From: Bacillales bacterium UBA3206
GTDB taxonomy: Bacteria > Bacillota_I > Bacilli_A > Acholeplasmatales > Anaeroplasmataceae
NCBI GenBank assembly: GCA_002363705.1
Contig: DEWQ01000011.1
Location: forward strand, 154,168 to 218,167
Direction: 5' to 3'
Length of the DNA: 64,000 nucleotides
A model generated the notes under the pieces. The model made no database searches, was not told the DNA's origin, and saw only the letters and a list, made by a program, of their open reading frames with translations. Below are positions 10,015-28,510 of the stretch, in pieces; within the stretch, counting starts at the first letter, position 1, and each line of letters opens with the position of its first letter. The position numbers and the translations under genes were made by a program.

Positions 10015-10066
10015 AATTTTATCTCCTTGTTACCTAATTTTTTTATAGTAATAACAAGTAGCATAA

Positions 10067-10095: not shown

Positions 10096-10224
10096 AAAAA
10101 TGCATAAGAATTACATTCTTTTATCAAAAACAAATTAAAGTAACAAATTTACCAAAAAACCTTGAAAAATGGCTTAACAAAGCCAAAAAAAAGCCACGCA
10201 TTCGAGAATATGCGTAGCTCTTTT

Positions 10225-10276
10225 ATCTTTTTCTTTGCAATTATAATAATCAAACAATTAACGCTTAGAGAATTGT
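10225..10276. repeat. ~52-bp imperfect direct repeat, copy A (atctttttctttgcaattataataatcaaacaatt...cttagagaattgt)
   Basis: It matches 11824..11879 with a few substitutions and one short indel. Confidence 0.8.
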
Positions 10277-10423
10277 TTTAAATAACCAAAAAACTAGAAA
10301 AAACCGCATCACTAAAGGATTTTTACTACTTTTAGATGATTTATTTTAAATATTAAATTCGGGCACTCATCGGGAACCACCCGTTACTAAGTGTTATCAA
10401 ACAACACTATTTTAACTTAATTC

Positions 10424-10666
10424 TCATTCACGTGCAATCTTTAATTTTTTTCTAGAAATCAATTCTAACATTTCCTCTTTATTGTTATGGATTCTATCGT
10501 CAATCACCAATTCTAGTAGAAGCTTCAATGCATCTCTGATTTCTTTTCCAGCAAGTCCTAATCTAATCAAATCATATCCATCTACTGATAAATCAGACAA
10601 GGCTGAAGTCGAATTAAATGATGCTGGTATTAAATTATATAACTCAAAATAATTGAATTTTACCAT
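10424..10666 (-). CDS. Hypothetical 80-aa protein (weak resemblance to the C-terminal tail of CCA-adding tRNA nucleotidyltransferases)
   Basis: Its start overlaps the Fic stop by 7 nt. 'GYDLIRLGLAGKEIRDALKLLLELVIDD' recalls the C-terminal segment of Bacillus CCA enzymes, but the similarity was judged by eye only. Confidence 0.3.
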   Translation of the reverse strand: MVKFNYFELYNLIPASFNSTSALSDLSVDGYDLIRLGLAGKEIRDALKLLLELVIDDRIHNNKEEMLELISRKKLKIARE

Positions 10667-11715: not shown

Positions 11716-11823
11716 ATCATCACCTTCTGCACAAATTTTATCATTTTTTGTGCACGTTGTCAATTCGTGCACAATATCAATTTGAAACAAAAATAAAAAG
11801 CAGGGTGAGAAGTCCTGCTTAAT

Positions 11824-11879
11824 ATCTTTTTCTTTGCAATTATAATAATCGAACAATTTACTAAGGCTTAGAGGCTTGT
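11824..11879. repeat. ~52-bp imperfect direct repeat, copy B
   Basis: It matches 10225..10276; together the two copies bracket the Fic module. Confidence 0.8.
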
Positions 11880-11955
11880 AGTGCACAACTAACACCTTAG
11901 TTAAGAAGTTTTTATTTGTGTTAAAGGTACTGCTATATTTTACGATTTTTTTCTT

Positions 11956-11993
11956 AAAAAAAACTAAAAGCAGGGTTGTGGATTCCCCTGCTT
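11956..11993 (-). terminator. rho-independent terminator of rplM-rpsI operon
   Basis: An aagcaggg/ccctgctt stem is followed on the minus strand by a U-run, about 50 nt after the rpsI stop. Confidence 0.6.
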
Positions 11994-12041
11994 CTAATAT
12001 AATCCATAAATATGAACTTTTTGTCAAAATCAAACGTAATA

Positions 12042-12446
12042 CTATCTCTTAGAGAATTGTGGAGCACGACGAGCCTTCTTAAGACCGTACTTCTTACGCT
12101 CCTTAGCACGTGGATCACGTGTAACAAGACCAGCTGGCTTTAATGTAGCACGATAATCTGGGTTAACTTCCATTAATGCACGAGTGATTCCTAGACGGAT
12201 AGCTCCAGCTTGTCCAGTCATTCCTCCACCAAATACATTAACGATTACATCGAACTTATTTAAGTTCTCTGTAAGCTCAAGTGGTTGAAGGGCGTCAAGT
12301 CTAGCTAGAGGGTTAGTAATATACTCCTCAAATGCTCTACCGTTAACAGTAACCTTTCCTTCACCTGCTTGTAAAATAACTCTAGCAACAGAAGTCTTAC
12401 GACGTCCTGTTCCGAAATATTGAACCTTAGTATTCTTCTTAGCCAT
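12042..12446 (-). CDS. rpsI: 30S ribosomal protein S9
   Basis: The full-length 134-aa S9 ends in '...[12 protein letters not shown]'. Confidence 0.95.
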
Positions 12447-12999: not shown

Positions 13000-13036
13000 T
13001 TTTATATAAAAAGAGGTGGCTATTCGCCATCCTCTT
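13000..13036 (-). terminator. rho-independent terminator of the sipW-AAA operon
   Basis: The hairpin aagaggtggc-tattc-gccatcctctt is followed by a U-run on the minus strand and overlaps the stop codon. Confidence 0.5.
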
Positions 13037-13730
13037 CATTAGCTTTATTTTCTTCCTCTATTTCCTTTAATAATTCTTGACGCATATCATCAAGTAGCTT
13101 TTGTTTAAGCTCCTCACTTGATAGCTTTTCTGAAGAATTTTCTTTTATCTTTTTCTTATTCTTTACAAGATAAATATTAACACTTTCAGTCAACATTATT
13201 AATAGAAATACAAATATTAATAATCCATAGATTAAATTTTTGTTTGACGCAAGCTTTCCTATATTTAAGAAATTAAATGTTTTAACATATATTCCTATAA
13301 GCATATCCGCTGTGACTAATTCATCATCAACCAAGGTATTATTATCACCCTTAACTATAAATCCACTATCTGTTATTTCAACTATTCTATGAACAATATA
13401 TAGTCCTTTAGTTTCACCAGATTCAGATTTATATATGATAATATCTCCAACATCACATGAATCATATGATATTTTCTTAAATATTATAGAATCCCCAGCT
13501 TTTATAGTTGGTTCCATACTCTTAGTTGGTACATATGAGTATGAGTATCCAAAATAGCTTACAGGCTTTTCTTCTCTTACAGCAATTACATTACATACAA
13601 GCATATAAATGATAAGTAATACAATTAATCCTATAAGAGAGCCTACTCCAATTGTTAATCCCTTTTGCACCTTTGGAGGTAGCTTTGATTTTAACCTTTG
13701 TAGTAAGCCTTGCTTTTTAGTCTTCGTCAT
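13020..13730 (-). CDS. ER/archaeal-type signal peptidase I (SipW-like) with C-terminal TM and charged cytoplasmic tail
   Basis: It has 'KSMEPTIKAGD' (Ser box), 'VHRIV' (His box) and 'GDNN', with an N-terminal TM, a second TM and an acidic/Lys-rich tail. Its start overlaps the upstream gene by 14 nt. Confidence 0.75.
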   Translation of the reverse strand: MTKTKKQGLLQRLKSKLPPKVQKGLTIGVGSLIGLIVLLIIYMLVCNVIAVREEKPVSYFGYSYSYVPTKSMEPTIKAGDSIIFKKISYDSCDVGDIIIYKSESGETKGLYIVHRIVEITDSGFIVKGDNNTLVDDELVTADMLIGIYVKTFNFLNIGKLASNKNLIYGLLIFVFLLIMLTESVNIYLVKNKKKIKENSSEKLSSEELKQKLLDDMRQELLKEIEEENKANEEDGE

Positions 13731-16371
13731 TTTCCTTTGCCCTTGCAGCTAAAGCTTTAGCACGAATTGCTTCACGTCTACGACGTAATAGTTCACGTGG
13801 ATCAACCTTTTCACCTGTTGAAGGTGTGCTATCCATTGCAGGACGAGCTTGACTACGTTCTGCTAATGTTCTTTGCTTTAAAGCCTCACGTCTACGTCTT
13901 AGAACCTCTCTTGGGTCCTCTTCAGTAGCAGATGGGGCTGCAGCCTCTACAGGTGCAGTACCATTAGCCTGTGCTTGACGCTGTGCAAGTAATGCACGAC
14001 GACGAATAATATCCCTATTACGCTCAAACATTGCAGCAGATGCTCTTTGTGGTGCTACTGCTTCTGGTTTAGACTCCTCTTCGTCGTCCTCTGCAGAAAC
14101 AACATCCTTTGATTGCATCATACTCTCTTCAGCACGTTCTTTTTTACGTGCTTCAAATAATGCCTTATTATCAAGAGGCTTTTCTTCATCCTCATCCTCA
14201 TCAACAACTCTTGCTCCAGCCTTATCAGCTAATGCCTTTTGTCTTATAGCCTCACGTCTACGACGTAATAGCTCCTTAGGTGATAATGATTCCTCTTGAG
14301 CCTCTTCCTCTTCACCATCATCAGATGAGAAGTCATTTAATAATTGGTCTAGCTCATCATCAATTGCCTTAACCTCTGCATTCTCCTGCTCGTCTTCAGC
14401 TTCTGCCTCAGCCTCATCAGCCATAGCAGCCTTCATAGCCTCTTCCTTAGCACGGGCTGCAGCAGCCTTAGCCTTAATGATTTCACGTCTACGCCTAAGG
14501 ATTTCCTTAGCATCTAGATGAGCCTTAGAAGCTTCTAGCTCCTTCTCTTGCTCCTCTACCTTCTTAGCTTCAGCCTCAGCCTTAGCCTTAGCTTCTTCTC
14601 TTTCCTTAGCCTTTGCTTCACGAGCAGCCTTTCTTTCAGCCTTAGCCTTAGCCTGCTCAGCAAGAATACGTGCTCTACGCTCTTGAAGCTTAGCCTTTGT
14701 AGCCTCTTGAGCTGCCTTCTCCTTAGCACGGGCCTCATCACGCTCAGCCTTAAGCTTAGCACGCTCCTCCTTAGCCTTAGCTTCTAGCTCCTCTTGTCTA
14801 CGTCTAGCCTCTTCACGCTCAGCAGCACGTTTAGCAGCACGAGCTGCCTTCTCTTCTGCAAGCTTCTTAAGTCTTGCTTCACGAGCCTGTTGCTGACGAA
14901 TCTTCTCTTCAGTAGATTGAATCTCTGCTAGTGTATCCTCGTATTCTTTCTTTGTATTATTGTAATCTACTTCCTTAAGTCTAGTAATAGTATCTAAGAC
15001 ATCTGCTTTCTTCTTAGCACGCTCTAGCTTAACTGGAAGTGGAACCTCTTCAAATTCATCCTCAAATGGAACCTCAAATAGAGGTGGATAAATTGAGTTT
15101 ATTACTTCTTGCATTTCTCTAAACACAAGCTCTAGTGAATATTTCTTCTCCATTCCAGAGTTTACTTTATCCTCAAGAGATTGCTGGTAGAATTCCTGAG
15201 TCTTATTTAAGAAATACTCAGACATCTCAAATTTTTCGATATTTTGAGAATCTGGCTTAAATTTATACTCATCATCCATCTTACTTAGATTACGAGCATT
15301 ACGATATGTATGTGACTTATATAGGTCCTGATTCTCTAGGTCTCTAGAACCATTATAATATAGCATTGTACCTACTGAGTTAGCAAAAATCTTATCAATT
15401 GTTGATGCCATCTCATCAGTATATTTATTTTTCTTTTCACGTACATTTACATCGAATGCTAATTGGTTATATCTATCAAGGAAAACCCATGTATTATAAC
15501 AAATCTTGAATTCAGGATTTTTTGTAATAATGTTAGTCTTTTGAATTGGGGGTACTACCTCTTTATAATTCTTTAAGGCTTGCATTAGCTGAGAAGAACG
15601 AAGAGATTTAAATTTCTCTTGTACATCCTTTGCTTTTTCAAAGGTGTCACGAGCCATCTTAACCTCAGATTCCTGCTCAGATTCCATTTTAACTGATAAT
15701 TCAACCTTAACCTTAGTTTTATCCTCTAGCTTGAAATCATTAGTAATAACTGTACTACGTGTCTCATATGAATCTAGATTCTTCTTCATAATTTGAATAC
15801 GAAGTGATAAGAACTTACAAATACGGTTAATTAGAGTCTTAATGAAACGGTTCTCATAAATTCCTAGCTCATCCTCAGAGAATGTTGTTAATAGCTTTGA
15901 TGGAATAATATCCCCGTTTTCCTTAACCTGTTTAATAAATTGTGTATGTGAGGATAAGTGTCTTACGGTATCAGAATTAACCTTCTTAACCTTCTCCATA
16001 GGTACAACTTCTTCCTCATAACGAATTGCTTTCTTAGGATCCTTTAAAATTTTTGAGATACTCTTAAAGCAATCATTTAATACTGGTATAAATGATTTTT
16101 CAAAAATCTTAGTTTCACGAATAGTCTTTGAGTAAACTGTCTTCTTTCCACCTTGGATTTGCTTTAGTAAAGCAGCTCCCATAGCTGACTTAGTGACACT
16201 ACCCTTTAGGCTTTCCTCGAGAATGTGGTAGAACTCACTTACAGATGCATCATTCTTTTCTGCATCAGTTGGCTCTAAGACCTTTCCATCTGAGCTATCA
16301 CCATTCTCATTTAGTTTTTCATCGACAACGATAGATTGTTCAGTCTTTTGCTCTTCTTCCACATTGCTCAC
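13717..16371 (-). CDS. Large hypothetical protein: ~480-aa N-terminal globular region plus ~400-aa E/R/K/A-rich helical tail with 5 'LLRRRREAIRxKALA' repeats
   Basis: It has no TM or signal peptide. The tail is an ER/K-rich single-alpha-helix-like segment (AEEKAARAAKRAAEREEARRRQEELEAKAKEE...) with five periodic RRRRE motifs that recur at nucleotide level (cacgtctacgacgtaatag). It sits 28 nt downstream of the AAA gene. Confidence 0.55.
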   Translation of the reverse strand: MSNVEEEQKTEQSIVVDEKLNENGDSSDGKVLEPTDAEKNDASVSEFYHILEESLKGSVTKSAMGAALLKQIQGGKKTVYSKTIRETKIFEKSFIPVLNDCFKSISKILKDPKKAIRYEEEVVPMEKVKKVNSDTVRHLSSHTQFIKQVKENGDIIPSKLLTTFSEDELGIYENRFIKTLINRICKFLSLRIQIMKKNLDSYETRSTVITNDFKLEDKTKVKVELSVKMESEQESEVKMARDTFEKAKDVQEKFKSLRSSQLMQALKNYKEVVPPIQKTNIITKNPEFKICYNTWVFLDRYNQLAFDVNVREKKNKYTDEMASTIDKIFANSVGTMLYYNGSRDLENQDLYKSHTYRNARNLSKMDDEYKFKPDSQNIEKFEMSEYFLNKTQEFYQQSLEDKVNSGMEKKYSLELVFREMQEVINSIYPPLFEVPFEDEFEEVPLPVKLERAKKKADVLDTITRLKEVDYNNTKKEYEDTLAEIQSTEEKIRQQQAREARLKKLAEEKAARAAKRAAEREEARRRQEELEAKAKEERAKLKAERDEARAKEKAAQEATKAKLQERRARILAEQAKAKAERKAAREAKAKEREEAKAKAEAEAKKVEEQEKELEASKAHLDAKEILRRRREIIKAKAAAARAKEEAMKAAMADEAEAEAEDEQENAEVKAIDDELDQLLNDFSSDDGEEEEAQEESLSPKELLRRRREAIRQKALADKAGARVVDEDEDEEKPLDNKALFEARKKERAEESMMQSKDVVSAEDDEEESKPEAVAPQRASAAMFERNRDIIRRRALLAQRQAQANGTAPVEAAAPSATEEDPREVLRRRREALKQRTLAERSQARPAMDSTPSTGEKVDPRELLRRRREAIRAKALAARAKENDED

Positions 16372-16399: not shown

Positions 16400-17989
16400 T
16401 TAGCTTACCTTCTTTAGATCATTAATAAAATCTTGTGATACAGCAAATGCTCTCTTACCAAATAATTTATCTAGTAAGGCACTTAATTGATCTAGCTCAT
16501 TACGTAGGAATGAAAGGTTTAATGACTCAAACTTACGTAAAATCTTATTACATAGCATGTAATCTAGACCTTCAATTTCAGTAAATCCACATGCAATATA
16601 GCATGGAACGAATAATCTAATTTGCTTCATGATACGGTTTCCGAATGCAATCTTGAATTTTGCTTGGATGAATTCATCAAGCTTCATGAATGATTCCATA
16701 ACTCTTGCAGAAATTGTAATGTCTCTTTGTGCTGCCTTGAATAGCTCATCAATATATTCAAATGACATTTGAACATTTTCAGTATAAGGTGCATCAACTA
16801 GCTCAGCCTTATGGTTAATAACGATAGGTAGGGCACGGTCATAAACCTTATCTGTGATTGTAAATGTTGAGTCATCCTTATTGGCTGTTCCAATGAACCA
16901 AATATTTTGGTTAATTAATAGCTTACCATTAATAAATAGCTTAGGATCTGTTGGATCTGAACCAGAAACGATGTCAATTAACCATTGAGATGGATCTGGC
17001 ATTTCCATTACTGATAGGAACTCAGCAAAATAGTACTCAATACGGGCAAGGTTCATCTCATCTAGTACGATGAAGTTAGGCTTGTCTGAGTATCCAGCTT
17101 GGTATACACACTTTAAGAAATCTGTTTCATTAAATCTATGTGTGAACTCATTTAAGTATCCAAGTAACTCAGCACGGTCACGCCATGAAGGCTGTACTGA
17201 AATAATTGATGATGGCTTATTAAAGAACTTACCCATTGCATATGGTAGGGAAGTCTTTCCTGTTCCTGAAATACCTTCTAGGATAAGAACCTTAGAAGTT
17301 CCCATTCCTGCGATATAACGGGCAATAACTGGCTTTGCATAATATAGATGTAGCTGTGATGCAGCATATCCGATAAATCTATCGCATAGACCACTTAAAT
17401 CAAGCATATCATTTGATGTCATTATTGTGTATTCAGGATTTGATCTATAGAAAGCATCAACTTGAGTAAGCTTAATGAATCTTCCATTAAACTCCTCTTT
17501 CTCCTCTTCCTCAGCAGGTGCTAATTGAGGGTTGAATAAATCATCTGGATTAACCTCAGTTTCTCCACCTGAAATTTGGCTTACACGTAAAGCAAGAATT
17601 TTATTCTTCTCATCAACAAGTTCAACTACCTTCTTATTTAATAGCTGCACTTGATCAATAAGCTCATCCTTCTCAATTTCTCTACCTCTAAACTTATTAT
17701 ATCTCTTACATAGAATTACAATTAATGTAATTAGTAATACGATAAATGCAAGATTAATAAATAGAACTACAACATAAGCAATCCAGTCTAATGCATTCCA
17801 TTCACTATTATGAATAGAAGCATCAGCTAAATCCTTAAAATAATTCTTAATGTCTGTTCCAAACCATTTTCCAAAGGCCTTTCCAATACTTGAAAAGAAT
17901 GTACCAAAGTTTTTAAAGAATGCCTTTAAAAAATTATAATAATATCTAGCAAATTCACTCATATCTGCTCTCTCCTTCCAAGGACTCAA
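16400..17989 (-). CDS. Membrane-anchored McrB/AAA_5-like NTPase
   Basis: An N-terminal TM helix (WIAYVVVLFINLAFIVLLITLIVILC) is followed by a coiled coil. The NTPase motifs are Walker A 'GISGTGKTS', Walker B 'IVLDEMNLARIEYYFAEF' and 'IGTANKDDSTF', which resembles the McrB 'MNTADRS' motif. Its start overlaps the upstream sipW-like stop by 8 nt. Confidence 0.6.
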   Translation of the reverse strand: MSPWKERADMSEFARYYYNFLKAFFKNFGTFFSSIGKAFGKWFGTDIKNYFKDLADASIHNSEWNALDWIAYVVVLFINLAFIVLLITLIVILCKRYNKFRGREIEKDELIDQVQLLNKKVVELVDEKNKILALRVSQISGGETEVNPDDLFNPQLAPAEEEEKEEFNGRFIKLTQVDAFYRSNPEYTIMTSNDMLDLSGLCDRFIGYAASQLHLYYAKPVIARYIAGMGTSKVLILEGISGTGKTSLPYAMGKFFNKPSSIISVQPSWRDRAELLGYLNEFTHRFNETDFLKCVYQAGYSDKPNFIVLDEMNLARIEYYFAEFLSVMEMPDPSQWLIDIVSGSDPTDPKLFINGKLLINQNIWFIGTANKDDSTFTITDKVYDRALPIVINHKAELVDAPYTENVQMSFEYIDELFKAAQRDITISARVMESFMKLDEFIQAKFKIAFGNRIMKQIRLFVPCYIACGFTEIEGLDYMLCNKILRKFESLNLSFLRNELDQLSALLDKLFGKRAFAVSQDFINDLKKVS

Positions 17990-17995: not shown

Positions 17996-18955
17996 TTACT
18001 TCTCTTCGTCGCCCTTTTCACTACTATCTGTGATATCTTTTTCATCATTTGGTTTTGTTTCTGCATTTTCCTTTGCAGCAGCTGCTTGCTCTGCTCTTAA
18101 TTGAGCTAGAAGCTCAGCCTTCATTTTTTCTCTTTCCTCATCAAGAGATTTCTTCATTTCTTCCTTCTCAGCCTCATTAGCCTCTTGAAGCTTAGCTGTT
18201 CTTATTTCCATTACATTCTTAATTACCATAAACATTTCAAATACTAAGAATAAACCTGTGAAAATAATAACTAGCACAAATCCCTTTTTAGGATTAGATA
18301 GCCAATTTACAAAATTACCAGCACCATCCCAGTGTGAAATGTATTTTGCTTTTACTTGATCTGGATTTACAATTTGTACAACCTCTTGAGTATATCTCAT
18401 TAAAGTTTTCTCTTCTTCTGTACAATTGTCGTAATAATACATACCATCTTTATATGATTTGTAGATATCTCCTTGTAATACAAAGCATGAAATACTATTA
18501 TCAGATGGATTATAAATAATATCTACAATTCTATGGGTATTAAGGAATGGATCCTTAGCACTTTCTGTATCCCAAAAAGTGATAATATCTCCAACTTTAA
18601 GCTTTGATGTTTTAAAATTAGTAGATGCCCATACCAAATCTCCCTTTTCAAATGTAGGTGTCATAGAGTCTGATAATACAATTTCATACCCTAGACCAAA
18701 AACATTTTTTACCTTACCTTCTTTAGATCCGGCAATTTGTGAAATTGAGAATAATAAAAGCAAGAATATAAAAAAGTAGAATATAGAATTAACCACAATA
18801 TTTGTTATATATAGCGCTTTTTTTCTTTTATCTATAGAATTAATTTCCATTTCTTCATCAATATTATCCTTAGTAGTAAGAGATTCCTCTTGTTCAATCA
18901 AATCATTATTTTCATTGTTAGTATCTTCATTCAACATATCTCTTGCTCCTTTCAC
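17996..18955 (-). CDS. ER/archaeal-type signal peptidase I (SipW-like, second paralog) with acidic N-terminal extension and C-terminal TM plus coiled-coil tail
   Basis: It has 'LSDSMTPTFEKGD' and the 'THRIV' His box; the C-terminal tail is 'EKEEMKKSLDEEREKMKAELLAQLRAEQ'. Confidence 0.7.
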   Translation of the reverse strand: MKGARDMLNEDTNNENNDLIEQEESLTTKDNIDEEMEINSIDKRKKALYITNIVVNSIFYFFIFLLLLFSISQIAGSKEGKVKNVFGLGYEIVLSDSMTPTFEKGDLVWASTNFKTSKLKVGDIITFWDTESAKDPFLNTHRIVDIIYNPSDNSISCFVLQGDIYKSYKDGMYYYDNCTEEEKTLMRYTQEVVQIVNPDQVKAKYISHWDGAGNFVNWLSNPKKGFVLVIIFTGLFLVFEMFMVIKNVMEIRTAKLQEANEAEKEEMKKSLDEEREKMKAELLAQLRAEQAAAAKENAETKPNDEKDITDSSEKGDEEK

Positions 18956-19096
18956 ATAAATATTCCTTATTTTATTTTATCATATTTAATTAGAAAATTA
19001 AATAGTATTTATTTGTAATAGCAAAAATAAGTCTATTATAAAAACAAAAATGTCTAGGTATTATTGAAATGATAAAATGTTAGTAGACACAAAAAA

Positions 19097-19543
19097 GTGT
19101 TTATTAACATTTTTTCTTTTATAATAAATAATAAGAATATACTTCTTCCTAGGAAGAATCACGGAGGTGAAAATATGGGAAGACCTAAAGGTGGAAAAAA
19201 CAAATCATGGACAGTGAATGAAAAATATGAAGTATTAGAGCCTATCATTAAAGGAGAAATATCTCAAAAAGATAGAGCACGAGAACTAGATTTGGCTTAT
19301 GGAATGATGACTAGGTGGCTTACAGCTTATAAAAAAGGTGGCATTGAGGCATTAAAGAATAAGCGTAAGCCTGGTAATCCTTTAGCAAAATATTCTAGTC
19401 GTAAAAAATTATCGTATACTGAGCAATTAGAGTATGAGAATATGAAATTAAGAATCGAGAATGAACGATTAAAAAAAGGATACACATCAAAGGAGGCGGA
19501 TCAAGCAAAACAAAAGAAATTAAACAAAAAGAATTCGCAATAA
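19097..19543 (+). CDS. IS3-family transposase OrfA (HTH)
   Basis: It opens 'MGRPKGGKNKSWTVNEKYEVLEPI...' and has a leucine-zipper-like C-terminus. Confidence 0.8.
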   Translation: MFINIFSFIINNKNILLPRKNHGGENMGRPKGGKNKSWTVNEKYEVLEPIIKGEISQKDRARELDLAYGMMTRWLTAYKKGGIEALKNKRKPGNPLAKYSSRKKLSYTEQLEYENMKLRIENERLKKGYTSKEADQAKQKKLNKKNSQ

Positions 19544-19590
19544 TAGAGTTATTAAGTAAAGATTTTAATATTGATTCATTATGCAAAGCA

Positions 19591-20409
19591 ATGGGATTAT
19601 CACGTTCTGGTTATTATAAATGGTTAAAAAGAAAAGGCACTTTAAATAGGTACGAAAATAGTAGAGTACTATTAAGTAATATGATAAAAGAATATCATAA
19701 TAATCATAAATCATGGGGATATAGACATATAGCAGCTGAAATAAGAAAAGACACTGGTTGGATATTTTCTGATAATCTTTGTCATAAGTGTTGTAAAGCC
19801 TTAAAAATACATTCTAAAGCAAGAAAACTTCCATATAGCAAGTCTGGTGAAGAAAGTATTAAATATCCAAATATGATTTGGAAAGATTGGAATACTACTA
19901 GACCATTTGAAAAGATAGTTACGGATACAACTATATTCTATAATCATAATAAACAATATGATTTAACTTTATATATTGATGTTTTCAACAATGAAATAGT
20001 GGCATACGATTTAGCAGATGGTAAGCATGGAGCGAATACGGCAAATCATATTAGAGCACTAAAAAAGTTACTAAAAGTCAAAATAAAAAGAGGGTATAAA
20101 GACCTTGAAACGATTGTCCATTCTGATCAAGGTATCATATACTCCTCAATGGTATTCGCCAATACCCATAAAGATTATAACATTAAACGTTCTATGAGTC
20201 GAGCAGGAACTCCAACTGATAATCCAATTATTGAAGCTTTAAATGGTTGGATTAAGGAGGAAATGGCTGTCGATTTTGACTTGTATAAAACTAATAATGT
20301 TCATAAAGCAGTCAGAGATTATATCAAATATTATAACAATGAAAGATTAGCATATGCATTACAATACAAAAGCCCTGTCCAGTATAGAACAGAGCTCTCA
20401 TTTAATTAA
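19591..20409 (+). CDS. IS3-family transposase OrfB (DDE integrase core), -1 frame relative to OrfA
   Basis: The DDE residues are in 'VTDTT', 'HSDQG' and 'IEALNGW'. The frame offset is consistent with programmed -1 frameshifting in 19500-19590. Confidence 0.8.
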   Translation: MGLSRSGYYKWLKRKGTLNRYENSRVLLSNMIKEYHNNHKSWGYRHIAAEIRKDTGWIFSDNLCHKCCKALKIHSKARKLPYSKSGEESIKYPNMIWKDWNTTRPFEKIVTDTTIFYNHNKQYDLTLYIDVFNNEIVAYDLADGKHGANTANHIRALKKLLKVKIKRGYKDLETIVHSDQGIIYSSMVFANTHKDYNIKRSMSRAGTPTDNPIIEALNGWIKEEMAVDFDLYKTNNVHKAVRDYIKYYNNERLAYALQYKSPVQYRTELSFN

Positions 20410-20479
20410 ATATTTTTTTAATGTCTACAAACTATTGACTAGTTCATATTATCCTAGACATTTTATAGATTACAAGATA

Positions 20480-21490
20480 TTATTCATTATCAGCAGATGT
20501 GAATGAATAATCAATTGAGAATGCTTGTCCGAATATAGCATCGAAACAGTCAGCATCGAATCCTTCTAACCAATATGTGAATGTTAATCTATAGATTTGG
20601 TTAGCTGAATCTGTTGCGAACATTTCAACTCCTGTATATCCAGCAGTTGTTGGAGTTAAACCTGCATAATTTGCATTAGCCGCAACATACTTATCTCCAG
20701 TAGCATCAGAGAAATTAGTTCCTAATACTGCCTCGATGTATGAGTTTGCAGCATTAGTTCCAGCTAGAGATTGTCCAAAATTAAATATACTTGTTCCTGT
20801 TCTATCAGTATTAGGTGCAATAGATGAACTATCAACATATCCAGCTAATGTTTGAAGTCTTGTATCATCATTTCCAGCTGCACCTTCAAATGCTGTCTTA
20901 GCAGCTGTAGGTGTTTGTGCATCAGCTACTACAGATGTAGAAACAGCCTTAGATACATCAACTACTGAACGTAAAGCATTAAGAGATGAAACCTTAACCT
21001 TATCTCCTGCAGCAAATGACATTGATGAAGGAGTTGTAGCAGTGAAATCCTTTTGAATTGTGTATGCAGAAACTGTCGTAGTTTGTGATGTAGAATCCTC
21101 TGATATTTGTACCTTCTTATTGTTAGCACTAACCTTTAAGAATAGCTCAAATTGAAGAGCTGTTGTTGATGTAGTGTCAATAGTTACATCAGATAGAGTT
21201 GATCCATCTAATGATTGCCACTTATCATCATTAGCAAGAGTTGATCCAGCAGCAACATATGTTAATGCTCCTAACTCGTTTTCTGACTTATCAATTTCTA
21301 CTGAAGATCCCCAGTGATAGCAATCTGTAGAAATTAAGATAGAGTCTGTTGTTGATTGTACACCAACTGTAATGTTTGCAGTTACTGTTGCATTAGTTGT
21401 AAACCATGCAAATGTTGTTGTTCCTAGAGCTACAACAGCGAATGCCATAGATAGTGAACTTAATAATAATTTTCTCGAAATTTTATTCAT
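20480..21490 (-). CDS. TasA/camelysin-like secreted protein (SipW-type signal peptide), paralog 1
   Basis: The N-terminus is 'MNKISRKLLLSSLSMAFAVVALGTTTFAWFT' and the C-terminus is 'YRLTFTYWLEGFDADCFD' (compare TasA '...QFSFEATQWNG'). The protein is Thr/Ser/Ala-rich. Confidence 0.55.
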   Translation of the reverse strand: MNKISRKLLLSSLSMAFAVVALGTTTFAWFTTNATVTANITVGVQSTTDSILISTDCYHWGSSVEIDKSENELGALTYVAAGSTLANDDKWQSLDGSTLSDVTIDTTSTTALQFELFLKVSANNKKVQISEDSTSQTTTVSAYTIQKDFTATTPSSMSFAAGDKVKVSSLNALRSVVDVSKAVSTSVVADAQTPTAAKTAFEGAAGNDDTRLQTLAGYVDSSSIAPNTDRTGTSIFNFGQSLAGTNAANSYIEAVLGTNFSDATGDKYVAANANYAGLTPTTAGYTGVEMFATDSANQIYRLTFTYWLEGFDADCFDAIFGQAFSIDYSFTSADNE

Positions 21491-21617
21491 ATATACCTTT
21501 CTCCTTTTCGTATTTTATTATTATATTTTTCCTTGTTTTTTCATTTTAATGACAACAAATATTCCTGTGTCCTTAACTTAATTATATCACTTAAGTGATT
21601 TTATATCAAGTATTTTG

Positions 21618-23126
21618 TTATTCCCACACGCTAACCAAATACCATTTCTCTCCTTTTGCACTAGGAGTTACTATTGTGTTTGTAAAGTCGAATAATGTTG
21701 GAACATCAGATGTTTTTCCTTCATTATCAAGATAATTGCCATTTTCATCAGACCATGCCCATCCCTTAAACGCGTGTGAATTGTTTGTGATATAGGCTGG
21801 TGAATCGTCTGATATCAGCATATTAAGAATTTGATGTCTAACAATCCTTTTTGTGATGTAGTTTGTATTTGGATTTTTTACCAAATAAGTAAGTTCCAAT
21901 GGATCTTCCTCATAGTGCTTAGTAGTGAATTGCATATCAAACACTAATTGCTGATCTAAAACAAAATCAATACAATCCGCATCCCAACCCTCAATCCATA
22001 ACGTAAGTGTCATAGAGGCTTTCCCATTGTCTCCATACTCATTTGATGCATTTAAGGATAAAATCTTAGCTGCTTCCACTGTGTCAAACCCCTTAAATGT
22101 TGAAGGGATATCATTGTAAGACATAATCTCACTTTCTTCTATTATACCATCAGCGCCTACACCAACACCATCATCCGCCTTCTCTGCTTCATCTTTGCGC
22201 ACCTGATTATAGTAAGAAACCCCTGCATTTTTTGTGTAGTCATAGGCAGCAGCTGCAGCTTGAGCAGCGGCTTCTGCTCCTGTAGCATTATCACGAACAA
22301 TATAGTCAGTACCAGCAGCTAGCTTTGTAGCATACGAACCATTTCCTTTATTCAATTCATAGAATCTAGGATTGCTATCACTTGATGTGGTTACAGCAAA
22401 ACGAGCTGCATCTGAAATATAGGCTCTATAATTTTGTTTAAAGCTTTCAGTTGCATCCGTTTTATCAACATCATCATATGTTGCAGTTCCATTTTGATGA
22501 TTATAGTTAATCATTTTTCCATTTGTCAAATCATAAGATGAAAAATCATGTCTAATATCTTCTGGGAAGCCATAATTGCTTTGCCCAACAGTTCTAATTT
22601 GGGTTTTAGGAATATATGTTCCATCATCATAAGTGAACGTTCCTGTAGAAAAATACACATCCTGTGGAGATTTAGTTTCAGACTTAAAATAAATTTTAAA
22701 CCTTACATATGCCTTACTAGACAATTTAAATATTGTCGCACGATTTTGAAAGTTCTCTCCATCTAAGGTTGTAAGTGGTTTTAAGGTTAGTTTAAAATAC
22801 TCAGCTACACTATCATCAGTAACCTCTATTACTTCACCCTTTTCAGTTAACCACTCATCTTTATTCTCGCCAGCAGATCTTAGGTCCCATCCCTTCATAT
22901 AAGCAACAATTGAAGCGGCAACATCAGTGCTTGTTAGTTGTCTCTTGTAATTTTCTCCGTCAACAGAAATCATCAAATCATCACCTGATGCAGCACCTAA
23001 TTCCATATCACTAAACCAAGCATTTGTATTTAACTTGAACCACGCAAATGTGACAGTTCCTGCAACTACAAACATTAGTACTAGAGTTAGTAAACTAATA
23101 TAAAGTTTTCTTGATAAATTAATCAT
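21618..23126 (-). CDS. TasA/camelysin-like secreted protein, paralog 2
   Basis: It has 'MINLSRKLYISLLTLVLMFVVAGTVTFAWFKLN' and C-terminal 'MTLTLWIEGWDADCIDF'. Confidence 0.55.
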   Translation of the reverse strand: MINLSRKLYISLLTLVLMFVVAGTVTFAWFKLNTNAWFSDMELGAASGDDLMISVDGENYKRQLTSTDVAASIVAYMKGWDLRSAGENKDEWLTEKGEVIEVTDDSVAEYFKLTLKPLTTLDGENFQNRATIFKLSSKAYVRFKIYFKSETKSPQDVYFSTGTFTYDDGTYIPKTQIRTVGQSNYGFPEDIRHDFSSYDLTNGKMINYNHQNGTATYDDVDKTDATESFKQNYRAYISDAARFAVTTSSDSNPRFYELNKGNGSYATKLAAGTDYIVRDNATGAEAAAQAAAAAYDYTKNAGVSYYNQVRKDEAEKADDGVGVGADGIIEESEIMSYNDIPSTFKGFDTVEAAKILSLNASNEYGDNGKASMTLTLWIEGWDADCIDFVLDQQLVFDMQFTTKHYEEDPLELTYLVKNPNTNYITKRIVRHQILNMLISDDSPAYITNNSHAFKGWAWSDENGNYLDNEGKTSDVPTLFDFTNTIVTPSAKGEKWYLVSVWE

Positions 23127-23243
23127 TTGTTTATCAACCCCTTTAGGTTAGTTATAAAACATTTACCGACATTTTATATAAATAAAATCGTAAATCTCTC
23201 ATAATTATATAATATTTTAATATTATGTCAATAAATATTTTTT

Positions 23244-24086
23244 CTATACTAAGCTCTCATGGTATGCTTCGAATGACATACCAATCTTAAGCTTTCCTTC
23301 AATAATTCCCATTCTTTCGTTATTATTTCCATAATAGGCAACACAATCTGGATCATTTCCATCAAGCCACATAATTATAGAAATCTTATAATCCTCACCA
23401 GGATTAAAGTCTAGGAATGCTGTATGATAAATAATATTCTCATCATCCTTTGATGAATAATCAGCATTCCAATCTACTGTTCGATCAGTATGGTAACTTG
23501 AACCAGCAATAGCATTTTTATAATACTCTTCATTTTCCTCAGTAGATTCTGCCTTCTTATAGATAGTACCTGTTGTATCCTTTGTTGTATAAACAAGCTG
23601 TCCATCCTCTTCAGTTCCATGTGAAATAAATACCCAGAATCTTGCAGCCGAAGCTACATCACGAGTATTTTCTGTGATTTTGAATGTAGTTTCTACATCA
23701 CATTGCTTTCCACCTGTGTTAGCTAAATAGAATGTATATCCAATATAATTTCCAGCACTCGATTTGTATCCTCCATCATTATTATAAACGAAGGATTCAA
23801 TGATTTCAGGTTCTGAAATAGGCTGTGCATCAGAATATTCAGGAGCATTAAGGCTTCTTTCACCTTCGCCATCTACTGATTCCTTAAGTACTATTCCCAT
23901 ACCACTTAATTCATCATCAATATTAATTGTAAATCCTCCTGTACTCAAACCATAGTATGTTACAAGACCGATAGTTGTAGCAAGTAGTAAGAATAATACA
24001 ATTAATGTAGCTATTAACTTTTTTCTTCTAAACAAGCTGACCATACGGTCCTTGGCAAGCTTTTCTGATAAATTATCCTTTGCCAT
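23244..24086 (-). CDS. TasA/TapA-like membrane-anchored or secreted protein, paralog 3
   Basis: It has an N-terminal TM/signal and C-terminal 'KISIIMWLDGNDPDCVAY', the same motif as paralogs 1 and 2. Confidence 0.45.
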   Translation of the reverse strand: MAKDNLSEKLAKDRMVSLFRRKKLIATLIVLFLLLATTIGLVTYYGLSTGGFTINIDDELSGMGIVLKESVDGEGERSLNAPEYSDAQPISEPEIIESFVYNNDGGYKSSAGNYIGYTFYLANTGGKQCDVETTFKITENTRDVASAARFWVFISHGTEEDGQLVYTTKDTTGTIYKKAESTEENEEYYKNAIAGSSYHTDRTVDWNADYSSKDDENIIYHTAFLDFNPGEDYKISIIMWLDGNDPDCVAYYGNNNERMGIIEGKLKIGMSFEAYHESLV

Positions 24087-24284
24087 ACTTGGTTATCCTC
24101 CATCATTAATTTACAAATATCATAAAAAATAGTTGCAATATCGTAGCAATCTACTGATACAGCAACTGGCTATCCCATAGGGACCCTATAGCTTTGCGTC
24201 ACTAGATTGCTCTAGTTTAGCCCTCTATCTAGTAGTATTATATACGAAATCTAAAAATATGTCAATTTTTTATGCCTCTAGAGG

Positions 24285-26090
24285 TTACTCCTCTTCATCC
24301 TCTTCTTCATCAGATTCAGAGTCATCTTCCTCTTCATCAGCATCCTCTTGTGCTACCTTTTTCTTTGGCTCCTCTTGTGCTTCAGTAGCATTAGCCTCAG
24401 GCTCTACTTGGCTCTCCTCTGCAGGAGCTTCCTCAGTAACAGTGGACGCTTGCTCAGAGCTTTCAGTAGTTGCTTCTTGGCTATCATTTGCTTCTACAGC
24501 ATTCTGCTCTTCAGCGACTGGAGCTTCTACATTAACCTCAGCCGCAAGATTTTCATCATTATTTTCTTCTGCAGGAGCTTGCTCAGCCTCCTTAGCAGGA
24601 TCAAATGTATGCTCGTCCCACTTACGAAGTCTAATGAAATCAGGAAGCTCAGATTCAGAAATTGGCTTTGAATAATAGTAACCTTGACCTAGAGTTACTC
24701 CAAGTCCCTTTACATATTCAGCCTGATCCTTAGTCTCAATTCCTTCAGATACAACAACACGATGTGCAACATTTGCTGTTTCAATAAGCATCTTAGCAAA
24801 CTTCTCCTTAATTGACTTAGTCTCTTCCTTCTCAGCTGCAAGCTTTTCTGCATCTGATGTTGTAGGTCTAGGATTATTTGAATCTGCCTCAACCTCATCA
24901 AGGAAGAAATTACGAGAAATCTTAATCATATCAATAGGCTCTTTACTAATCTTTGTGATTGTAGAGTAGTCTAGATCAAATCCATCAACTGCAATTGTAA
25001 ATCCTGCATCACGTAGCTTTAATAGGTTTTGCTTAACGTTATCCATCTTCTCAAACATTGCATATCCTGAAATCTCAAGTACAATTGAAGAAGCTGCAAC
25101 TGATGCCTTCTTAGCAACAAGAACTAGATCATCAGCTAGTGATTCATATGTTAATTGCTTTGTAGATAAGTTAAGAGTTAAATGGAAATCATCACCAACA
25201 AGTGGTTGAACCTCCTTAAACTTAGAGCATAATAGCTCAAGTCCCCATTTACCTACCCAATAAATATCTCCACTCTTTTCCATGATAGACATGAACTTAG
25301 CTGGTGGTAATACGCCTTGCTCTGGGTGGTTCCAACGCATTAGAGCCTCAAAACCATAAACATTATCAGTATTAAGGTTAATGATTGGTTGATAATATAG
25401 ACAGAATTCCTTGTTAAGGATAGCCTTCTTGATTTCTAAGAAGAACTTGTAGTTCTCTGACTCATCAGTAGCAAGAGTTCTATAATACATTGTGTATTTA
25501 TTTCCACCCTCACGCTTAGAAATATATGTTGAAAGCTCTAGATTCTTTACAAGCTCTTCTGTAGTTCTTCCACAAGAAGGATACATACAAATACCTGCAG
25601 ATGCAGTAAGAGAAATAGAATCTCTTGTAGATACATAAAGCTTTCCTCTTACATCAGCAAGTAGCTGATCAGTTATTTTACATACCTGCTCATATGTTAA
25701 ATTATCCTTGATGAAAATCATAAATTCATCATTACTATAATTTGAAATTACTGTTCTATAAGGGAATCTTTTAACAAAGCGTTGTGCAATTTCTGTTAAG
25801 AATTCCTGACATTGCTCACGTCCGAATATATCATTCATTGATGTGAAATTATCAATATCAATATAGATTAGAGTAAATTCTCCAAATCTTCCAACCTTCT
25901 TAATATAATTAGAAATAGCTCTATTCATTTCAGCCTTAGTAATAGTCTGCTCTGTTAGATTATCGCTTTCCTCATGGAATTTCTTATAATTGTATTTAAT
26001 TAGGAAGAAAAATAATACTCCTAATAAAATTACTACTAGTACTGCAATTAATGTTACCATTAATGCATTACCTCCTGAAGTTAATAACAT
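24285..26090 (-). CDS. Membrane protein with degenerate GGDEF (SNDEF) and partially degenerate EAL domains; acidic C-terminal tail
   Basis: It has 'EALMRW', 'DGFDLDYS' in place of DDFGTGYSS, 'EGIET', and 'YSNDEF' where GGDEF would be. Confidence 0.7.
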   Translation of the reverse strand: MLLTSGGNALMVTLIAVLVVILLGVLFFFLIKYNYKKFHEESDNLTEQTITKAEMNRAISNYIKKVGRFGEFTLIYIDIDNFTSMNDIFGREQCQEFLTEIAQRFVKRFPYRTVISNYSNDEFMIFIKDNLTYEQVCKITDQLLADVRGKLYVSTRDSISLTASAGICMYPSCGRTTEELVKNLELSTYISKREGGNKYTMYYRTLATDESENYKFFLEIKKAILNKEFCLYYQPIINLNTDNVYGFEALMRWNHPEQGVLPPAKFMSIMEKSGDIYWVGKWGLELLCSKFKEVQPLVGDDFHLTLNLSTKQLTYESLADDLVLVAKKASVAASSIVLEISGYAMFEKMDNVKQNLLKLRDAGFTIAVDGFDLDYSTITKISKEPIDMIKISRNFFLDEVEADSNNPRPTTSDAEKLAAEKEETKSIKEKFAKMLIETANVAHRVVVSEGIETKDQAEYVKGLGVTLGQGYYYSKPISESELPDFIRLRKWDEHTFDPAKEAEQAPAEENNDENLAAEVNVEAPVAEEQNAVEANDSQEATTESSEQASTVTEEAPAEESQVEPEANATEAQEEPKKKVAQEDADEEEDDSESDEEEDEEE

Positions 26091-28510
26091 TACTCCTCAC
26101 CTAACTTTCCGTTACTCTTGTTTTCACTTGAAACCTTACCTGTCTTTAATAAGGCAAAGGCATCTTCCTTAGATAAAGCCTTACCAATATAATATCCTTG
26201 AATTATATCAGCACCAAATTTATGAACAATATCCTTTTGAATCTTAGTTTCAACACCTTCACAAATTACCTTATCTCCAAGCTCCTTACCTAGAGTAATA
26301 ATCTTTGAAGTTAATACCTTACTAAATCTATCTGATTCAATATGCTTTATAAACTCCTTATCAACCTTAATTGTATCAATAGGTAGCTCCTTTAAATAAA
26401 GCATAGATGAATATCCTGTACCAAAATCATCTAGGTGGATTGAAATTCCACGGTTCTTAAGAATTTGAAGCTTTTCAATAACTGTACTGAAGTTTTCCAT
26501 TAGGAATGTTTCTGTTACCTCTAAGGCAATAGCTCCTGGTCTTAGTCCATTTTCTTCAAACTTCTCTAAGAAATCTGCAACGAATCCTGCTTGAACAATT
26601 TGTGCAGGCGATACATTAACTGAAATATGAATATCATACTGCTCCATTTCCTTAGCAGTCTTAAATACATCCGCATTAATGAAGTTTCCTACATCAATGA
26701 TAAATCCATTCTTTTCAGCCATCTTAATGTAAACCTCTGGAGAGATTGTGGCATATTTTGGATTATTCCAACGAAGCAATGCTTCAAATCCACATACTCT
26801 TTCTTGATTTAGCTCATATTGTGGCTGATAGTACATTACGAACTCTCCACGTTGGATAGCAAGCTTTAAATCTTCCTCCATCTCGCGGTCCTTCATAGCA
26901 CTATTTTCTAGATTTACATCATATTTACATACATTTCTTCCAGCTCCCTTAGCACGATTTGTAGCTGTAGTAAGCTTAGATATCAGCATGTCATAATCTA
27001 TGTCTGTTTCTCCATCCATATCTGAGCCTAATACACCAAATGCTGGACGAAGCATAATTTCATTATTATTAATTTGAATAGGCGCCTTTAATTCCTCTAG
27101 CATTCTATCACAAATTTTTAGATTTGAAACCTCATTTGAGTTTTCATCAAGGATTACGAACTCATCTCCCTTTGTATGGAAGATTTCAAGGCCATCAAAA
27201 AATTCATGAAGCTTTTCTGAGAAGAATTTTAGTACATCATTACCTTGATCAAATCCAAGTAATGTATTAATATCCTTAAATCCTCTTAGGTTAACCATAA
27301 TGAATAAATATGGATCCTTAACAGATTTATATTTTTCCTTAACCTCACGATATCTTCTATCAAGAACTACTCCATTATCATCACCTGTAACAAGTGACTT
27401 AGTAGACTTTTCAATTAATATCTTATGATCAATATATTCTTTTGTAATATCCTTACCAATAAGTGAATAATCAGTACCACGCTTTGCAGAATAGAATTCA
27501 AAGTAAACATCATCATGTTCCTTGACTCCTTCTTCATTTAGCATACCAATCCATCCAAGAACAAATTTTCTTTGTTCCTTAATTAAATCCTTAAGTGGTA
27601 AATCCGTATCCATCAATGTCAAATCATTCATTGAGCTAATTGGAAGAGACTTAGTTTCAAATGCTGCCTTAAATGGTCTATTGTAAGAAATAATCTTTCC
27701 ATCAACCTTACATACAACAACAGCGTTTGAACCTCTAAGAGAAATTCCTGCATCAAGTGCTTGACCCTTATTAAGCTTTTTAAATAAGAAAATAAAATTA
27801 ATAACAATTCCTAATAATAATAGTCCTGCACCAATCCAATACATTAATCTAAATTGATTAACATCATTAGTTGTAATAATATCATCTGAGTTAACGAATC
27901 TTAAAAGCTTAAATGAAGAATAATCATCTACAACAATATATCCATCATTTTCTCCTGATGTGACAGTAAGACGGGCTTTATATACCTCTCTACCCTCTTC
28001 ATGTGTTTTATCAAGAATCTTATTAGATAATGTCGCAGAATTTGTTCTTGTTAATATCTCAAGAAGAGATGTTACACGAGAATTATAATCAACATTTGAT
28101 CCTATAACAGTTCCATTATCAATAAGAAGAATTGCATTATCCTCATCATTTAATGCATTAGCCATAACAGTTTGTAGGGCTACTCTTCCATACTCACTAC
28201 CATTTACATAATATACATAACCATCAGATGAAATAGCATATGTGTTATCTCCAAAAATTGAAGAATCATCTATATTTGTAGTTTCAACAGAATCGCTTCC
28301 GTTAACAAATAATGTATTATATTCAGCAATACTTGCATCAAGAGCACTACTAGATGCATCATATGCACTTTCACTTTGATAATATGCATTTTTGACTGTT
28401 GCAGTATCTACACCAGCCTGATAAACTGCAGTGATAGCAATTAAGCACACTAAGAAAAATATTAAAATTATTACATAAACCTTTAAATCTCTTGCGCGCA
28501 TTTTCATCAC
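26090..28510 (-). CDS. Sensor membrane protein with degenerate GGDEF (KGDEF) and canonical EAL c-di-GMP phosphodiesterase domain
   Basis: It has two TM helices flanking a ~200-aa extracytoplasmic domain and the EAL motifs 'EALLRW', 'LEVTE', 'DDFGTGYSS', 'KVDKEF' and 'EGVET'. Confidence 0.8.
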   Translation of the reverse strand: MMKMRARDLKVYVIILIFFLVCLIAITAVYQAGVDTATVKNAYYQSESAYDASSSALDASIAEYNTLFVNGSDSVETTNIDDSSIFGDNTYAISSDGYVYYVNGSEYGRVALQTVMANALNDEDNAILLIDNGTVIGSNVDYNSRVTSLLEILTRTNSATLSNKILDKTHEEGREVYKARLTVTSGENDGYIVVDDYSSFKLLRFVNSDDIITTNDVNQFRLMYWIGAGLLLLGIVINFIFLFKKLNKGQALDAGISLRGSNAVVVCKVDGKIISYNRPFKAAFETKSLPISSMNDLTLMDTDLPLKDLIKEQRKFVLGWIGMLNEEGVKEHDDVYFEFYSAKRGTDYSLIGKDITKEYIDHKILIEKSTKSLVTGDDNGVVLDRRYREVKEKYKSVKDPYLFIMVNLRGFKDINTLLGFDQGNDVLKFFSEKLHEFFDGLEIFHTKGDEFVILDENSNEVSNLKICDRMLEELKAPIQINNNEIMLRPAFGVLGSDMDGETDIDYDMLISKLTTATNRAKGAGRNVCKYDVNLENSAMKDREMEEDLKLAIQRGEFVMYYQPQYELNQERVCGFEALLRWNNPKYATISPEVYIKMAEKNGFIIDVGNFINADVFKTAKEMEQYDIHISVNVSPAQIVQAGFVADFLEKFEENGLRPGAIALEVTETFLMENFSTVIEKLQILKNRGISIHLDDFGTGYSSMLYLKELPIDTIKVDKEFIKHIESDRFSKVLTSKIITLGKELGDKVICEGVETKIQKDIVHKFGADIIQGYYIGKALSKEDAFALLKTGKVSSENKSNGKLGEE

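Follow-up and report, generated by a model that had tools for sequence, protein, structure and literature searches.

Three paralogous proteins as candidate surface-fibre subunits in a CoCoPALM-type gene cluster of wall-less Acholeplasmatales

We analysed a 64,000-nucleotide stretch of contig DEWQ01000011.1 (hereafter the window) from Bacillales bacterium UBA3206, a member of the Anaeroplasmataceae within the Acholeplasmatales (assembly GCA_002363705.1). Three consecutive genes in it, P3, P2 and P1, belong to a nine-gene cluster of the CoCoPALM type (Bell et al. 2024, PMC11090510), together with two SipW-type signal peptidases (SipWa and SipWb), an McrB-type GTPase with its McrC-like DUF2357 partner, and two EAL proteins (GE1 and GE2). 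P1, P2 and P3 are paralogues within one large unannotated beta-sandwich family, and we consider it probable (about 60%) that they build, as structural subunits, a fibre or adhesin on the surface of this wall-less bacterium. A first-pass annotation of the window had described them as tandem TasA/camelysin-like paralogues served by two SipW peptidases; its observation was partly confirmed and its interpretation partly supported, and it mentioned neither the McrB/McrC-like pair nor the two EAL proteins nor the cyclic dimeric GMP (c-di-GMP) riboswitch that precedes P3.

Three paralogues of one unannotated family

The three minus-strand open reading frames (ORFs) were present one after the other at the lengths first reported (Table 1). 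BLASTP aligned P1 with P2 at an E-value of 1e-7 for the N-terminal and for the C-terminal segment, each on its own; profiles of the P1 and P3 families aligned in hhalign with a probability of 95.6% (E 1.2e-8); and a generalised motif, [WYF]h[ED]GxDxxx, was found in 259 of the 267 family proteins fetched. These results indicate that the similarity shared by P1, P2 and P3 is not due to chance. A further motif, A-x-R, is common to all three (NALRSVV, DAARFAV and SAARFWV).

Inspection of the shared termini reproduced the TFAWF N-termini reported for two of the proteins, P1 beginning MNKISRKL...ALGTTTFAWF and P2 MINLSRKL...AGTVTFAWF. The motif W(L/I)(E/D)GxD(A/P)DC, which had been said to end all three proteins, does occur in each of them, but not as the C-terminus: it is followed by 21 residues in P1, 32 in P3 and 117 in P2 (family median, 21), and in the predicted P1 structure it closes the penultimate beta-strand. 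Its cysteine, described as conserved, was found in just 166 of 259 family members (64%), which excluded this residue as a defining one. Likewise, a Thr/Ser/Ala-rich composition characterises P1 (38.7%), but neither P2 (25%) nor P3 (22%).

Table 1 Features of the cluster and its surroundings (nucleotide positions in the window).
Feature	Position	Strand	Description
SipWb	13020-13730	-	SipW-type signal peptidase I; final gene of the cluster; Pfam Peptidase_S26
McrC-like protein	13717-16371	-	884 aa; Pfam DUF2357 at 3.7e-11; about 470 conserved N-terminal residues
McrB-type AAA+ GTPase	16400-17989	-	Pfam AAA_5; N-terminal amphipathic region, transmembrane segment and coiled coil; NxD motif GTANKDD
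SipWa	17996-18955	-	SipW-type signal peptidase I; N- and C-terminal transmembrane segments, K/E-rich tail
IS3-family element	19047-20464	+	orfA 19097-19543, orfB 19591-20409; Pfam rve, HTH_21; between P1 and sipWa
P1	20480-21490	-	336 aa; Thr/Ser/Ala-rich; SipW-type signal; candidate major exposed subunit
WLEGFDADC	20546-20572		Sequence motif, P1 aa 307-315
Promoter-like site	21581-21609	-	Upstream of P1; 11/12 consensus matches, extended -10 TG
P2	21618-23126	-	502 aa; SipW-type signal, aa 1-28; beta-sandwich core; candidate adhesin or tip subunit
WIEGWDADC	21972-21998		Sequence motif, P2 aa 377-385
Sigma-70-type promoter	23204-23231	-	Upstream of P2; 12/12 consensus matches
P3	23244-24086	-	280 aa; cytoplasmic N-terminal tail, one transmembrane segment; candidate membrane anchor or base subunit
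WLDGNDPDC	23343-23369		Sequence motif, P3 aa 240-248
Intrinsic terminator hairpin and U-tract	24122-24167	-	Expression platform; 5' arm AGUUGC is the aptamer 3' strand
c-di-GMP-I aptamer	24158-24232	-	P3 5' leader; RF01051, 54.4 bits (gathering score 35), E 7e-8
Sigma-70-type promoter	24237-24265	-	TTGACA, 17 nt spacer, TATAAT; 12/12; directly upstream of the riboswitch
GE1	24285-26090	-	601 aa; Pfam EAL 2.4e-52, GGDEF 9.9e-18; degenerate SNDEF
GE2	26090-28510	-	806-aa membrane protein; Pfam EAL 3.8e-62, GGDEF 2e-13; degenerate KGDEF; first gene of the cluster

No Pfam or NCBIfam model matched P1, P2, P3 or their family profiles, and no PDB chain matched any of them by sequence, family profiles included. 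Word-indexed searches with the three proteins returned 33, 74 and 23 homologues, all without names; the few that carried a source label came from Acholeplasmatales or Anaeroplasmataceae metagenome-assembled genomes (MAGs), and throughout the family the source names read 'hypothetical protein' or were missing. An exhaustive profile search retrieved 5,769 clusters (50% identity) at E<=1e-3 and 427 at E<=1e-30. The best-conserved block of the family is the N-terminus, M.K(L/I)(T/S)RKL...ALGTTTFAWFT, where the first 30 residues reach 3-4 bits per column, the highest conservation observed; the C-terminal block has the general form W(L/I)EG(W/F/Y)D(A/P)(D/N/E)x(F/Y)(N/D)A(I/L)L.

A single genome of each GTDB species was scanned for G[TA][TS]TFAWFT, and 87 loci were confirmed. 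Nearly all bore the label Acholeplasmatales or came from MAGs of unplaced Bacilli, Bacillota or Tenericutes; taxa given by name were Anaeroplasmataceae, Acholeplasmataceae, Mariniplasma, Paracholeplasma vituli and Peloplasma aerotolerans, and a small number of the 87 loci resemble mis-binned contigs. Four are filed as MAGs of Parabacteroides distasonis (L008), Elusimicrobiaceae (L009), Gammaproteobacteria (L020) and Bacteroidales (L042), most likely through binning contamination; the cluster is complete in L008 and L009, and L020 and L042, both short contigs, hold fragments only.

A probable TasA-class signal peptide and two SipW-type peptidases

Judged by its sequence, the signal peptide of P1 and P2 appears to be of the TasA class. 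TIGR04088 (cognate_SipW) was the commonest NCBIfam match across the family, found below threshold in 12 of 72 members (best E 0.0089). In hhalign, TFA↓WF (the arrow marks the cleavage position) fell in register with TWA↓AF of TasA, a site known from experiment; the TasA chain in 8AUR begins at A28, right after ...GGGTWA. Comparisons were made with TasA alone and with an alignment of nine annotated TasA-family proteins, for which plasmid-borne TasA-family genes were used; a metagenome scan with TasA returned three near-identical Bacillus genes only. Against T[WY]A↓[AY]F of the nine-member alignment, TFA↓WF gave an E-value of 0.0013 at a probability of 18%. The signal peptides of annotated TasA-family proteins are likewise strongly conserved, so the strong conservation of this segment in the P1/P2 family is not anomalous. 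Cleavage of P1 is predicted between A28 and W29.

Both candidate peptidases exceeded the cut-off of TIGR02228 (51.85), SipWa with 55 bits and SipWb with 79.4 bits, and SipWa matched the SipW model NF046067 at 1.4e-16. The SxSM, HR and GD motifs were invariant in 10 aligned SipW paralogues (Ser97, His141 and Asp163 in SipWa). By these sequence criteria SipWa and SipWb are endoplasmic reticulum/archaeal (SipW)-type peptidases with intact catalytic residues. The SipW-type signal proposed in the first-pass annotation is supported by the sub-threshold TIGR04088 matches, the register with the TasA cleavage site and the two intact peptidases together. SipWa diverges much faster than SipWb (60% versus 84% identity to the closest relative), tracking P1 and P2, perhaps because it co-evolves with its substrates or because its ectodomain is exposed. 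In both paralogues a C-terminal transmembrane (TM) segment precedes a conserved terminal tail, E(K)IRxELLEE.

The two SipW genes had been described as adjacent to the P genes. Both genes are real, but an IS3-family insertion parts them from P1, and two large genes lie between them. The insertion is bounded by imperfect terminal inverted repeats of 50 nt (19047-19096 and 20415-20464), and the gene tables of two other loci (L001 and L003) list no such IS3 gene pair between P1 and sipWa. The IS3 element is not part of the system.

Predicted folds and the case for polymerisation

AlphaFold2 produced confident models for P1 (pLDDT, the predicted score in the local distance difference test, 88.7; predicted template modelling score, pTM, 0.84) and for P2 (pLDDT 82.3, pTM 0.82). 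The best structural neighbours of both models were donor-strand filament subunits, and the best match of the P2 core was again the TasA fibre. In P1, the 20 residues past the predicted cleavage site combine high conservation with a pLDDT of 38-60 in the monomer model.

Sequence comparison with TasA beyond the signal peptide gave a marginal signal at the C-terminus of P3. With signal peptides kept, hhalign aligned the signal peptide alone, plus a marginal C-terminal hairpin of P3. Once signal peptides were removed, the P3 family alone rose above its controls, aligning with the TasA family at a score of 25 (E 0.0056), a score reached by 0 of 30 column shuffles, and KPG-strand-WLEGND...GGSIKIGMSFxAY was paired with LKPG..FIFEDNGTD-QNxFQGDSIxLxxxFxAxQ. 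For P1, P2 and P3 alike, the best TasA-family alignment placed C-terminal hairpin on C-terminal hairpin. The first-pass equation of WLEG with the terminal FEATQWNG of TasA was off by one strand: WLEGxD aligns with the penultimate strand and acidic loop of the TasA family (FIFEDNGTD), and the last TasA strand pairs with the last strand of the P family, ...KIGMSFEAY.

Several results weigh against a TasA-like fibre. A TasA/camelysin assignment found no support in Pfam, where no protein of the window matched Peptidase_M73/TasA (PF12389) at E<1, and among P1-family members Peptidase_M73 matched weakly in only 5 of 72 (best E 0.012). With a hidden Markov model of the TasA-family mature domain, the family scored no better than reversed or shuffled controls, and with signal peptides removed, hhalign scored the P1 and P2 families against TasA at the null level. 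Foldseek returned nothing significant for the P1 model against the PDB (best E 0.048). Relatives of McrBC are otherwise defence systems, and in this particular genome the IS3 element may be polar on sipWa, the GTPase gene, the DUF2357 gene and sipWb. The signal class resembles that of TasA, with which the architecture is also compatible; membership of the TasA/M73 family is not demonstrated.

P1-P3 could instead be SipW-processed proteins that do not polymerise, acting as monomeric adhesins or a loose coat over the naked membrane, with their likeness to TasA reduced to a signal peptide and a generic beta-sandwich. Neither sequence nor Foldseek gives a significant link to any fibre subunit, P2 carries a domain of adhesin type (resembling an InlB B-repeat), and monomeric surface antigens evolve fast too, all of which would suit such proteins. 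We nevertheless regard this reading as unlikely: two independent models have donor-strand filament subunits as their best structural neighbours, the post-cleavage segment is highly conserved but unplaced in the monomer model, as expected of an intermolecular strand, and the constant order of the three paralogues, of which one has an anchor-like N-terminus, is reminiscent of pilus operons.

Candidate exposed subunits and a putative membrane tether

The three proteins differ strongly in their conservation, with identities to the closest relative of 47% for P1, 54% for P2 and 89% for P3; the corresponding values were 93% for GE1 and GE2, 94% for the DUF2357 protein and 98% for the GTPase. P3 lacks TFA↓WF, and VTxYG..TGGFT is invariant in its place across the P3 family, in which a cytoplasmic tail, MAKxxxEKLAKDxMVSLFRKKKL, is also conserved and is followed by one TM segment. 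In P2, a C-terminal domain (aa ~405-502, nt 21621-21914) resembles an InlB B-repeat, an extension restricted to Anaeroplasmataceae-type loci. These features suggest that P1 and P2, both fast-evolving, are exposed subunits, the latter probably adhesive, and that P3 serves as a membrane tether. The earlier idea of exposed subunits with a membrane anchor fits both the uncleavable-looking signal anchor of P3 and the identity gradient from P1 to P3.

P1, P2 and P3 all lack LPxTG, the prepilin motif G↓F(T/S)L(I/L)E and a lipobox, and on these grounds we ruled out sortase pilins (Spy0128 or SpaA), type IV pilins and lipoproteins, respectively. A looser, type IV pilin-like organisation would keep the N-terminal hydrophobic segment as the filament core, with the membrane GTPase extracting subunits and the SipW-type proteins serving as assembly factors. 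The 30 N-terminal residues are indeed the most conserved of the family, a membrane NTPase gene adjoins the subunit genes, and Bell et al. call the CoCoPALM peptidases 'pilus assembly factors' (PMC11090510). However, the prepilin motif is missing, protein-family searches with the cluster genes found no prepilin peptidase and no PilB/PilC match, the signal peptides of annotated TasA-family proteins are strongly conserved yet removed, T-aromatic-A↓x-F exactly matches the cleaved site of TasA, and both peptidases retain their catalytic residues; we consider this organisation quite improbable.

A nine-gene cluster around an McrB/McrC-like pair

Across those Acholeplasmatales loci, among the 87, that have enough flanking sequence, nine genes keep a conserved order: GE2, GE1, P3, P2, P1, SipWa, AAA (the GTPase), DUF2357 and SipWb. 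This strict synteny ruled out a chance defence island lodged between two peptidases. In the window and in L001, the cluster is located between metG and rplM-rpsI.

The GTPase matched the PADLOC family PDC-M26A at 2.8e-36, and in the PDB its family profile found McrB only (6hz4 at 3.3e-4). N370, D372, D373, Walker A and Walker B were invariant among 30 orthologues, with a mean column identity of 70%; identity is 73-98% within Anaeroplasmataceae and about 55% to Acholeplasmataceae. Reading of the sequence places a TM segment at aa ~68-93 and a heptad-like region at aa ~100-135. Its McrC-like partner, whose DUF2357 domain corresponds to the N-terminal domain of McrC, ends in a K/E/A/R-rich coiled-coil tail of about 400 aa and has no PDB relative by sequence; its alignment holds no conserved (D/E)xK nuclease motif, E312-K313-K314 varying in relatives. 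The tail (aa ~480-884; 13717-~14900) contains about five copies of an (E)LLRRRREAI(R/K)xKAL(A)-like motif, and this tail and the C-terminal tails of the SipW proteins may be interacting cytoplasmic coiled coils.

CoCoPALM was described as an McrB-type GTPase with an NxD, not NxxD, motif, fused to an FtsB-like TM and coiled-coil module, and a DUF2357 McrC homologue with a coiled coil, associated with genes of the signal-peptidase family (PMC11090510). The account runs to three sentences, defers the description, and names no fibre subunits, regulation or taxa (PMC11090510). The supplements of that CoCoNuT paper do not contain CoCoPALM, and a literature search found the term for this system in no other paper. 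The nine-gene cluster matches the class by its NxD GTPase, its DUF2357 coiled-coil partner and the S26-family peptidases flanking the pair. A tblastn search of plasmids with the GTPase returned CoCoNuT-like AAA+DUF2357 pairs without peptidases, and no CoCoPALM.

A conflict or defence system derived from McrBC and related to CoCoNuT, with the secreted proteins as receptor shields or envelope sensors, appears very improbable: the GTPase does match a candidate defence family (PDC-M26A), has McrB as its only PDB relative and finds its closest plasmid-borne relatives in CoCoNuT-like pairs with defence-island-like contexts, but the cluster's fixed genomic position (in the window and L001), its gene order (in loci with enough flank) and the GTPase's conservation are housekeeping-like, not patchy, no conserved nuclease motif was seen in the McrC-like protein, and control by a c-di-GMP riboswitch suggests a lifestyle or adhesion function.

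A c-di-GMP riboswitch and two EAL proteins

We identified a class I c-di-GMP aptamer in the leader of P3, with a consensus promoter immediately before it and the P3 start codon, at 24086, downstream of both. An aptamer occupied the same place between GE1 and P3 in all seven related loci scanned (55-64 bits). The terminator that follows folds at -16 kcal/mol (z -3.9), and 0 of 200 shuffles were as good. Because its 5' arm is the 3' strand of the aptamer, the element would act as an ON switch. A hairpin overlapping the aptamer, with a different stem sequence, was clear in five of the seven relatives by computed fold, each followed by a U-run (the one in L031 being weaker); in L049 and L015 it was seen by reading the sequence only. 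L031 carries three tandem c-di-GMP-I aptamers before P3 (7873-8202) and another overlapping the end of sipWb (16591-16665), and a second aptamer lies between P3 and P2 in L010 (8854-8927) and L012 (8404-8478).

P2 and P1 have upstream sites of their own (Table 1), and a further sigma-70 consensus, the fourth of these sites and again 12/12, lies inside the P2 coding region (22500-22529, minus strand). GE1 and GE2, together with their aligned relatives, have an intact EAL motif and a degenerate GGDEF motif. The C-terminal tail of GE1 (24285-~24620) is acidic and of low complexity, about 110 aa rich in E/A/N/D/S; Ser-rich ORFs of 138 and 107 aa on the opposite strand (24259-24675, plus strand) are probably artefacts of its composition.

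Elsewhere in the window, positions 1-12050, beside rpsI-rplM, are low in GC (0.26-0.29) and encode, in order of position, a Rep3-like initiator (7833-8657), a phage-type integrase (8929-10014) and a Fic/DOC protein (10660-12033); this stretch is probably an integrated mobile element. Eleven tRNA genes are clustered at 62861-63957 (minus strand), and an S10-Clostridia ribosomal leader (55684-55785, minus strand) lies upstream of a large ribosomal-protein operon.

A proposed mechanism

If P3, P2 and P1 do build such a fibre or adhesin, the cluster could work as follows. At high c-di-GMP, the bound aptamer would sequester the 5' arm of the terminator and allow read-through into P3-P2-P1, and the two EAL proteins would shut the system off by lowering c-di-GMP. 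P1 and P2 would be exported and cut between Ala28 and Trp29 by a SipW-type peptidase, leaving a highly conserved strand, WFT..., that could dock into the neighbouring subunit like the donor strand of TasA. P3, presumably uncut at the position of TFA↓WF, would be kept in the membrane by its signal anchor and cytoplasmic tail and would tether the fibre there; such a tether would be needed because the cell has no wall and no sortase. The InlB B-repeat-like domain of P2 would mediate adhesion, and the W-h-E-G-x-D-x-D loop between the last two strands may form an acidic site at the subunit interface, possibly binding Ca2+. Beside the peptidases at the membrane, the McrB/McrC-like pair might drive or gate assembly. 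The fullest form of this proposal is a filament machine in which that pair, otherwise known only from restriction and defence, has been exapted as an assembly or gating motor for anchored, SipW-processed, TasA-like donor-strand subunits that a c-di-GMP riboswitch turns on; we put it forward tentatively, as a rather doubtful extension.

Were the fibre or adhesin reading true, wall-less relatives of the Mollicutes, common in rumen and gut, would gain an appendage on their surface together with an attachment switch under c-di-GMP control; literature searches found no report of either in these organisms, and searches for Acholeplasma with SipW, TasA, GGDEF or riboswitch found nothing relevant. It would also raise the questions of how a naked membrane can anchor a fibre and support its assembly, and of whether an McrBC-type GTPase has passed from DNA restriction into envelope biogenesis. 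Experiments are feasible, since the cluster occurs in two cultured species, Paracholeplasma vituli and Peloplasma aerotolerans.

Comparison with known systems

The cluster resembles the tapA-sipW-tasA system for biofilm fibres of Bacillus subtilis (fibre structure 8AUR) in encoding a dedicated SipW-type peptidase with its substrates and in having several paralogous or accessory subunits. The likeness to TasA itself lies in the conserved signal peptide, with T-aromatic-A↓x-F in the same register, and in a C-terminus built of strand, acidic loop and strand. Unlike TasA, P1-P3 show neither a Peptidase_M73 match nor a sequence signal in the mature domain; they are larger (280-502 aa), with big insertions, and one paralogue has a membrane-anchor-like N-terminus. 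Two peptidases are present instead of one, the host is wall-less, and an McrB/McrC-like pair, two genes for EAL proteins and a riboswitch for c-di-GMP belong to the cluster.

In Clostridia, for example at pilA1 and CD2831 of Clostridioides difficile, a c-di-GMP riboswitch and an intrinsic terminator stand in the leaders of surface-appendage genes, and high c-di-GMP favours attachment. Those systems comprise type IV pili or adhesins anchored by sortase, and ON switching in them relies mostly on class II aptamers; the present cluster combines a class I aptamer with presumably SipW-dependent subunits.

Archaeal TasA-like donor-strand filaments, which include the Sulfolobus threads (7PNB), Pyrobaculum AbpA bundling pili (7UEG), Pyrodictium CanX cannulae (9H8B) and DUF1102 tubes (9BAC), consist of secreted beta-sandwich subunits that lose a signal peptide and polymerise by N-terminal strand insertion, some of them, as preprint titles and abstracts state, with Ca2+ at the subunit interfaces. 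They have no detectable sequence similarity to P1-P3, and neither PMC9245690 nor the related abstracts report an McrB-like GTPase or c-di-GMP control.

A further close counterpart is CoCoPALM, with which the cluster shares an NxD GTPase (here ANKDD) bearing a predicted N-terminal TM segment and coiled coil, a DUF2357 protein with a long coiled coil and signal-peptidase genes. The FtsB homology given for the GTPase N-terminus differs from our result, since that region had no FtsB/DivIC match in Pfam at E<1. To CoCoPALM as published, the present analysis adds candidate subunits, EAL genes, a riboswitch and wide conservation in the Acholeplasmatales, and it thereby proposes candidate subunits both for an unannotated family of 5,769 clusters and for a system that has so far been a name only.

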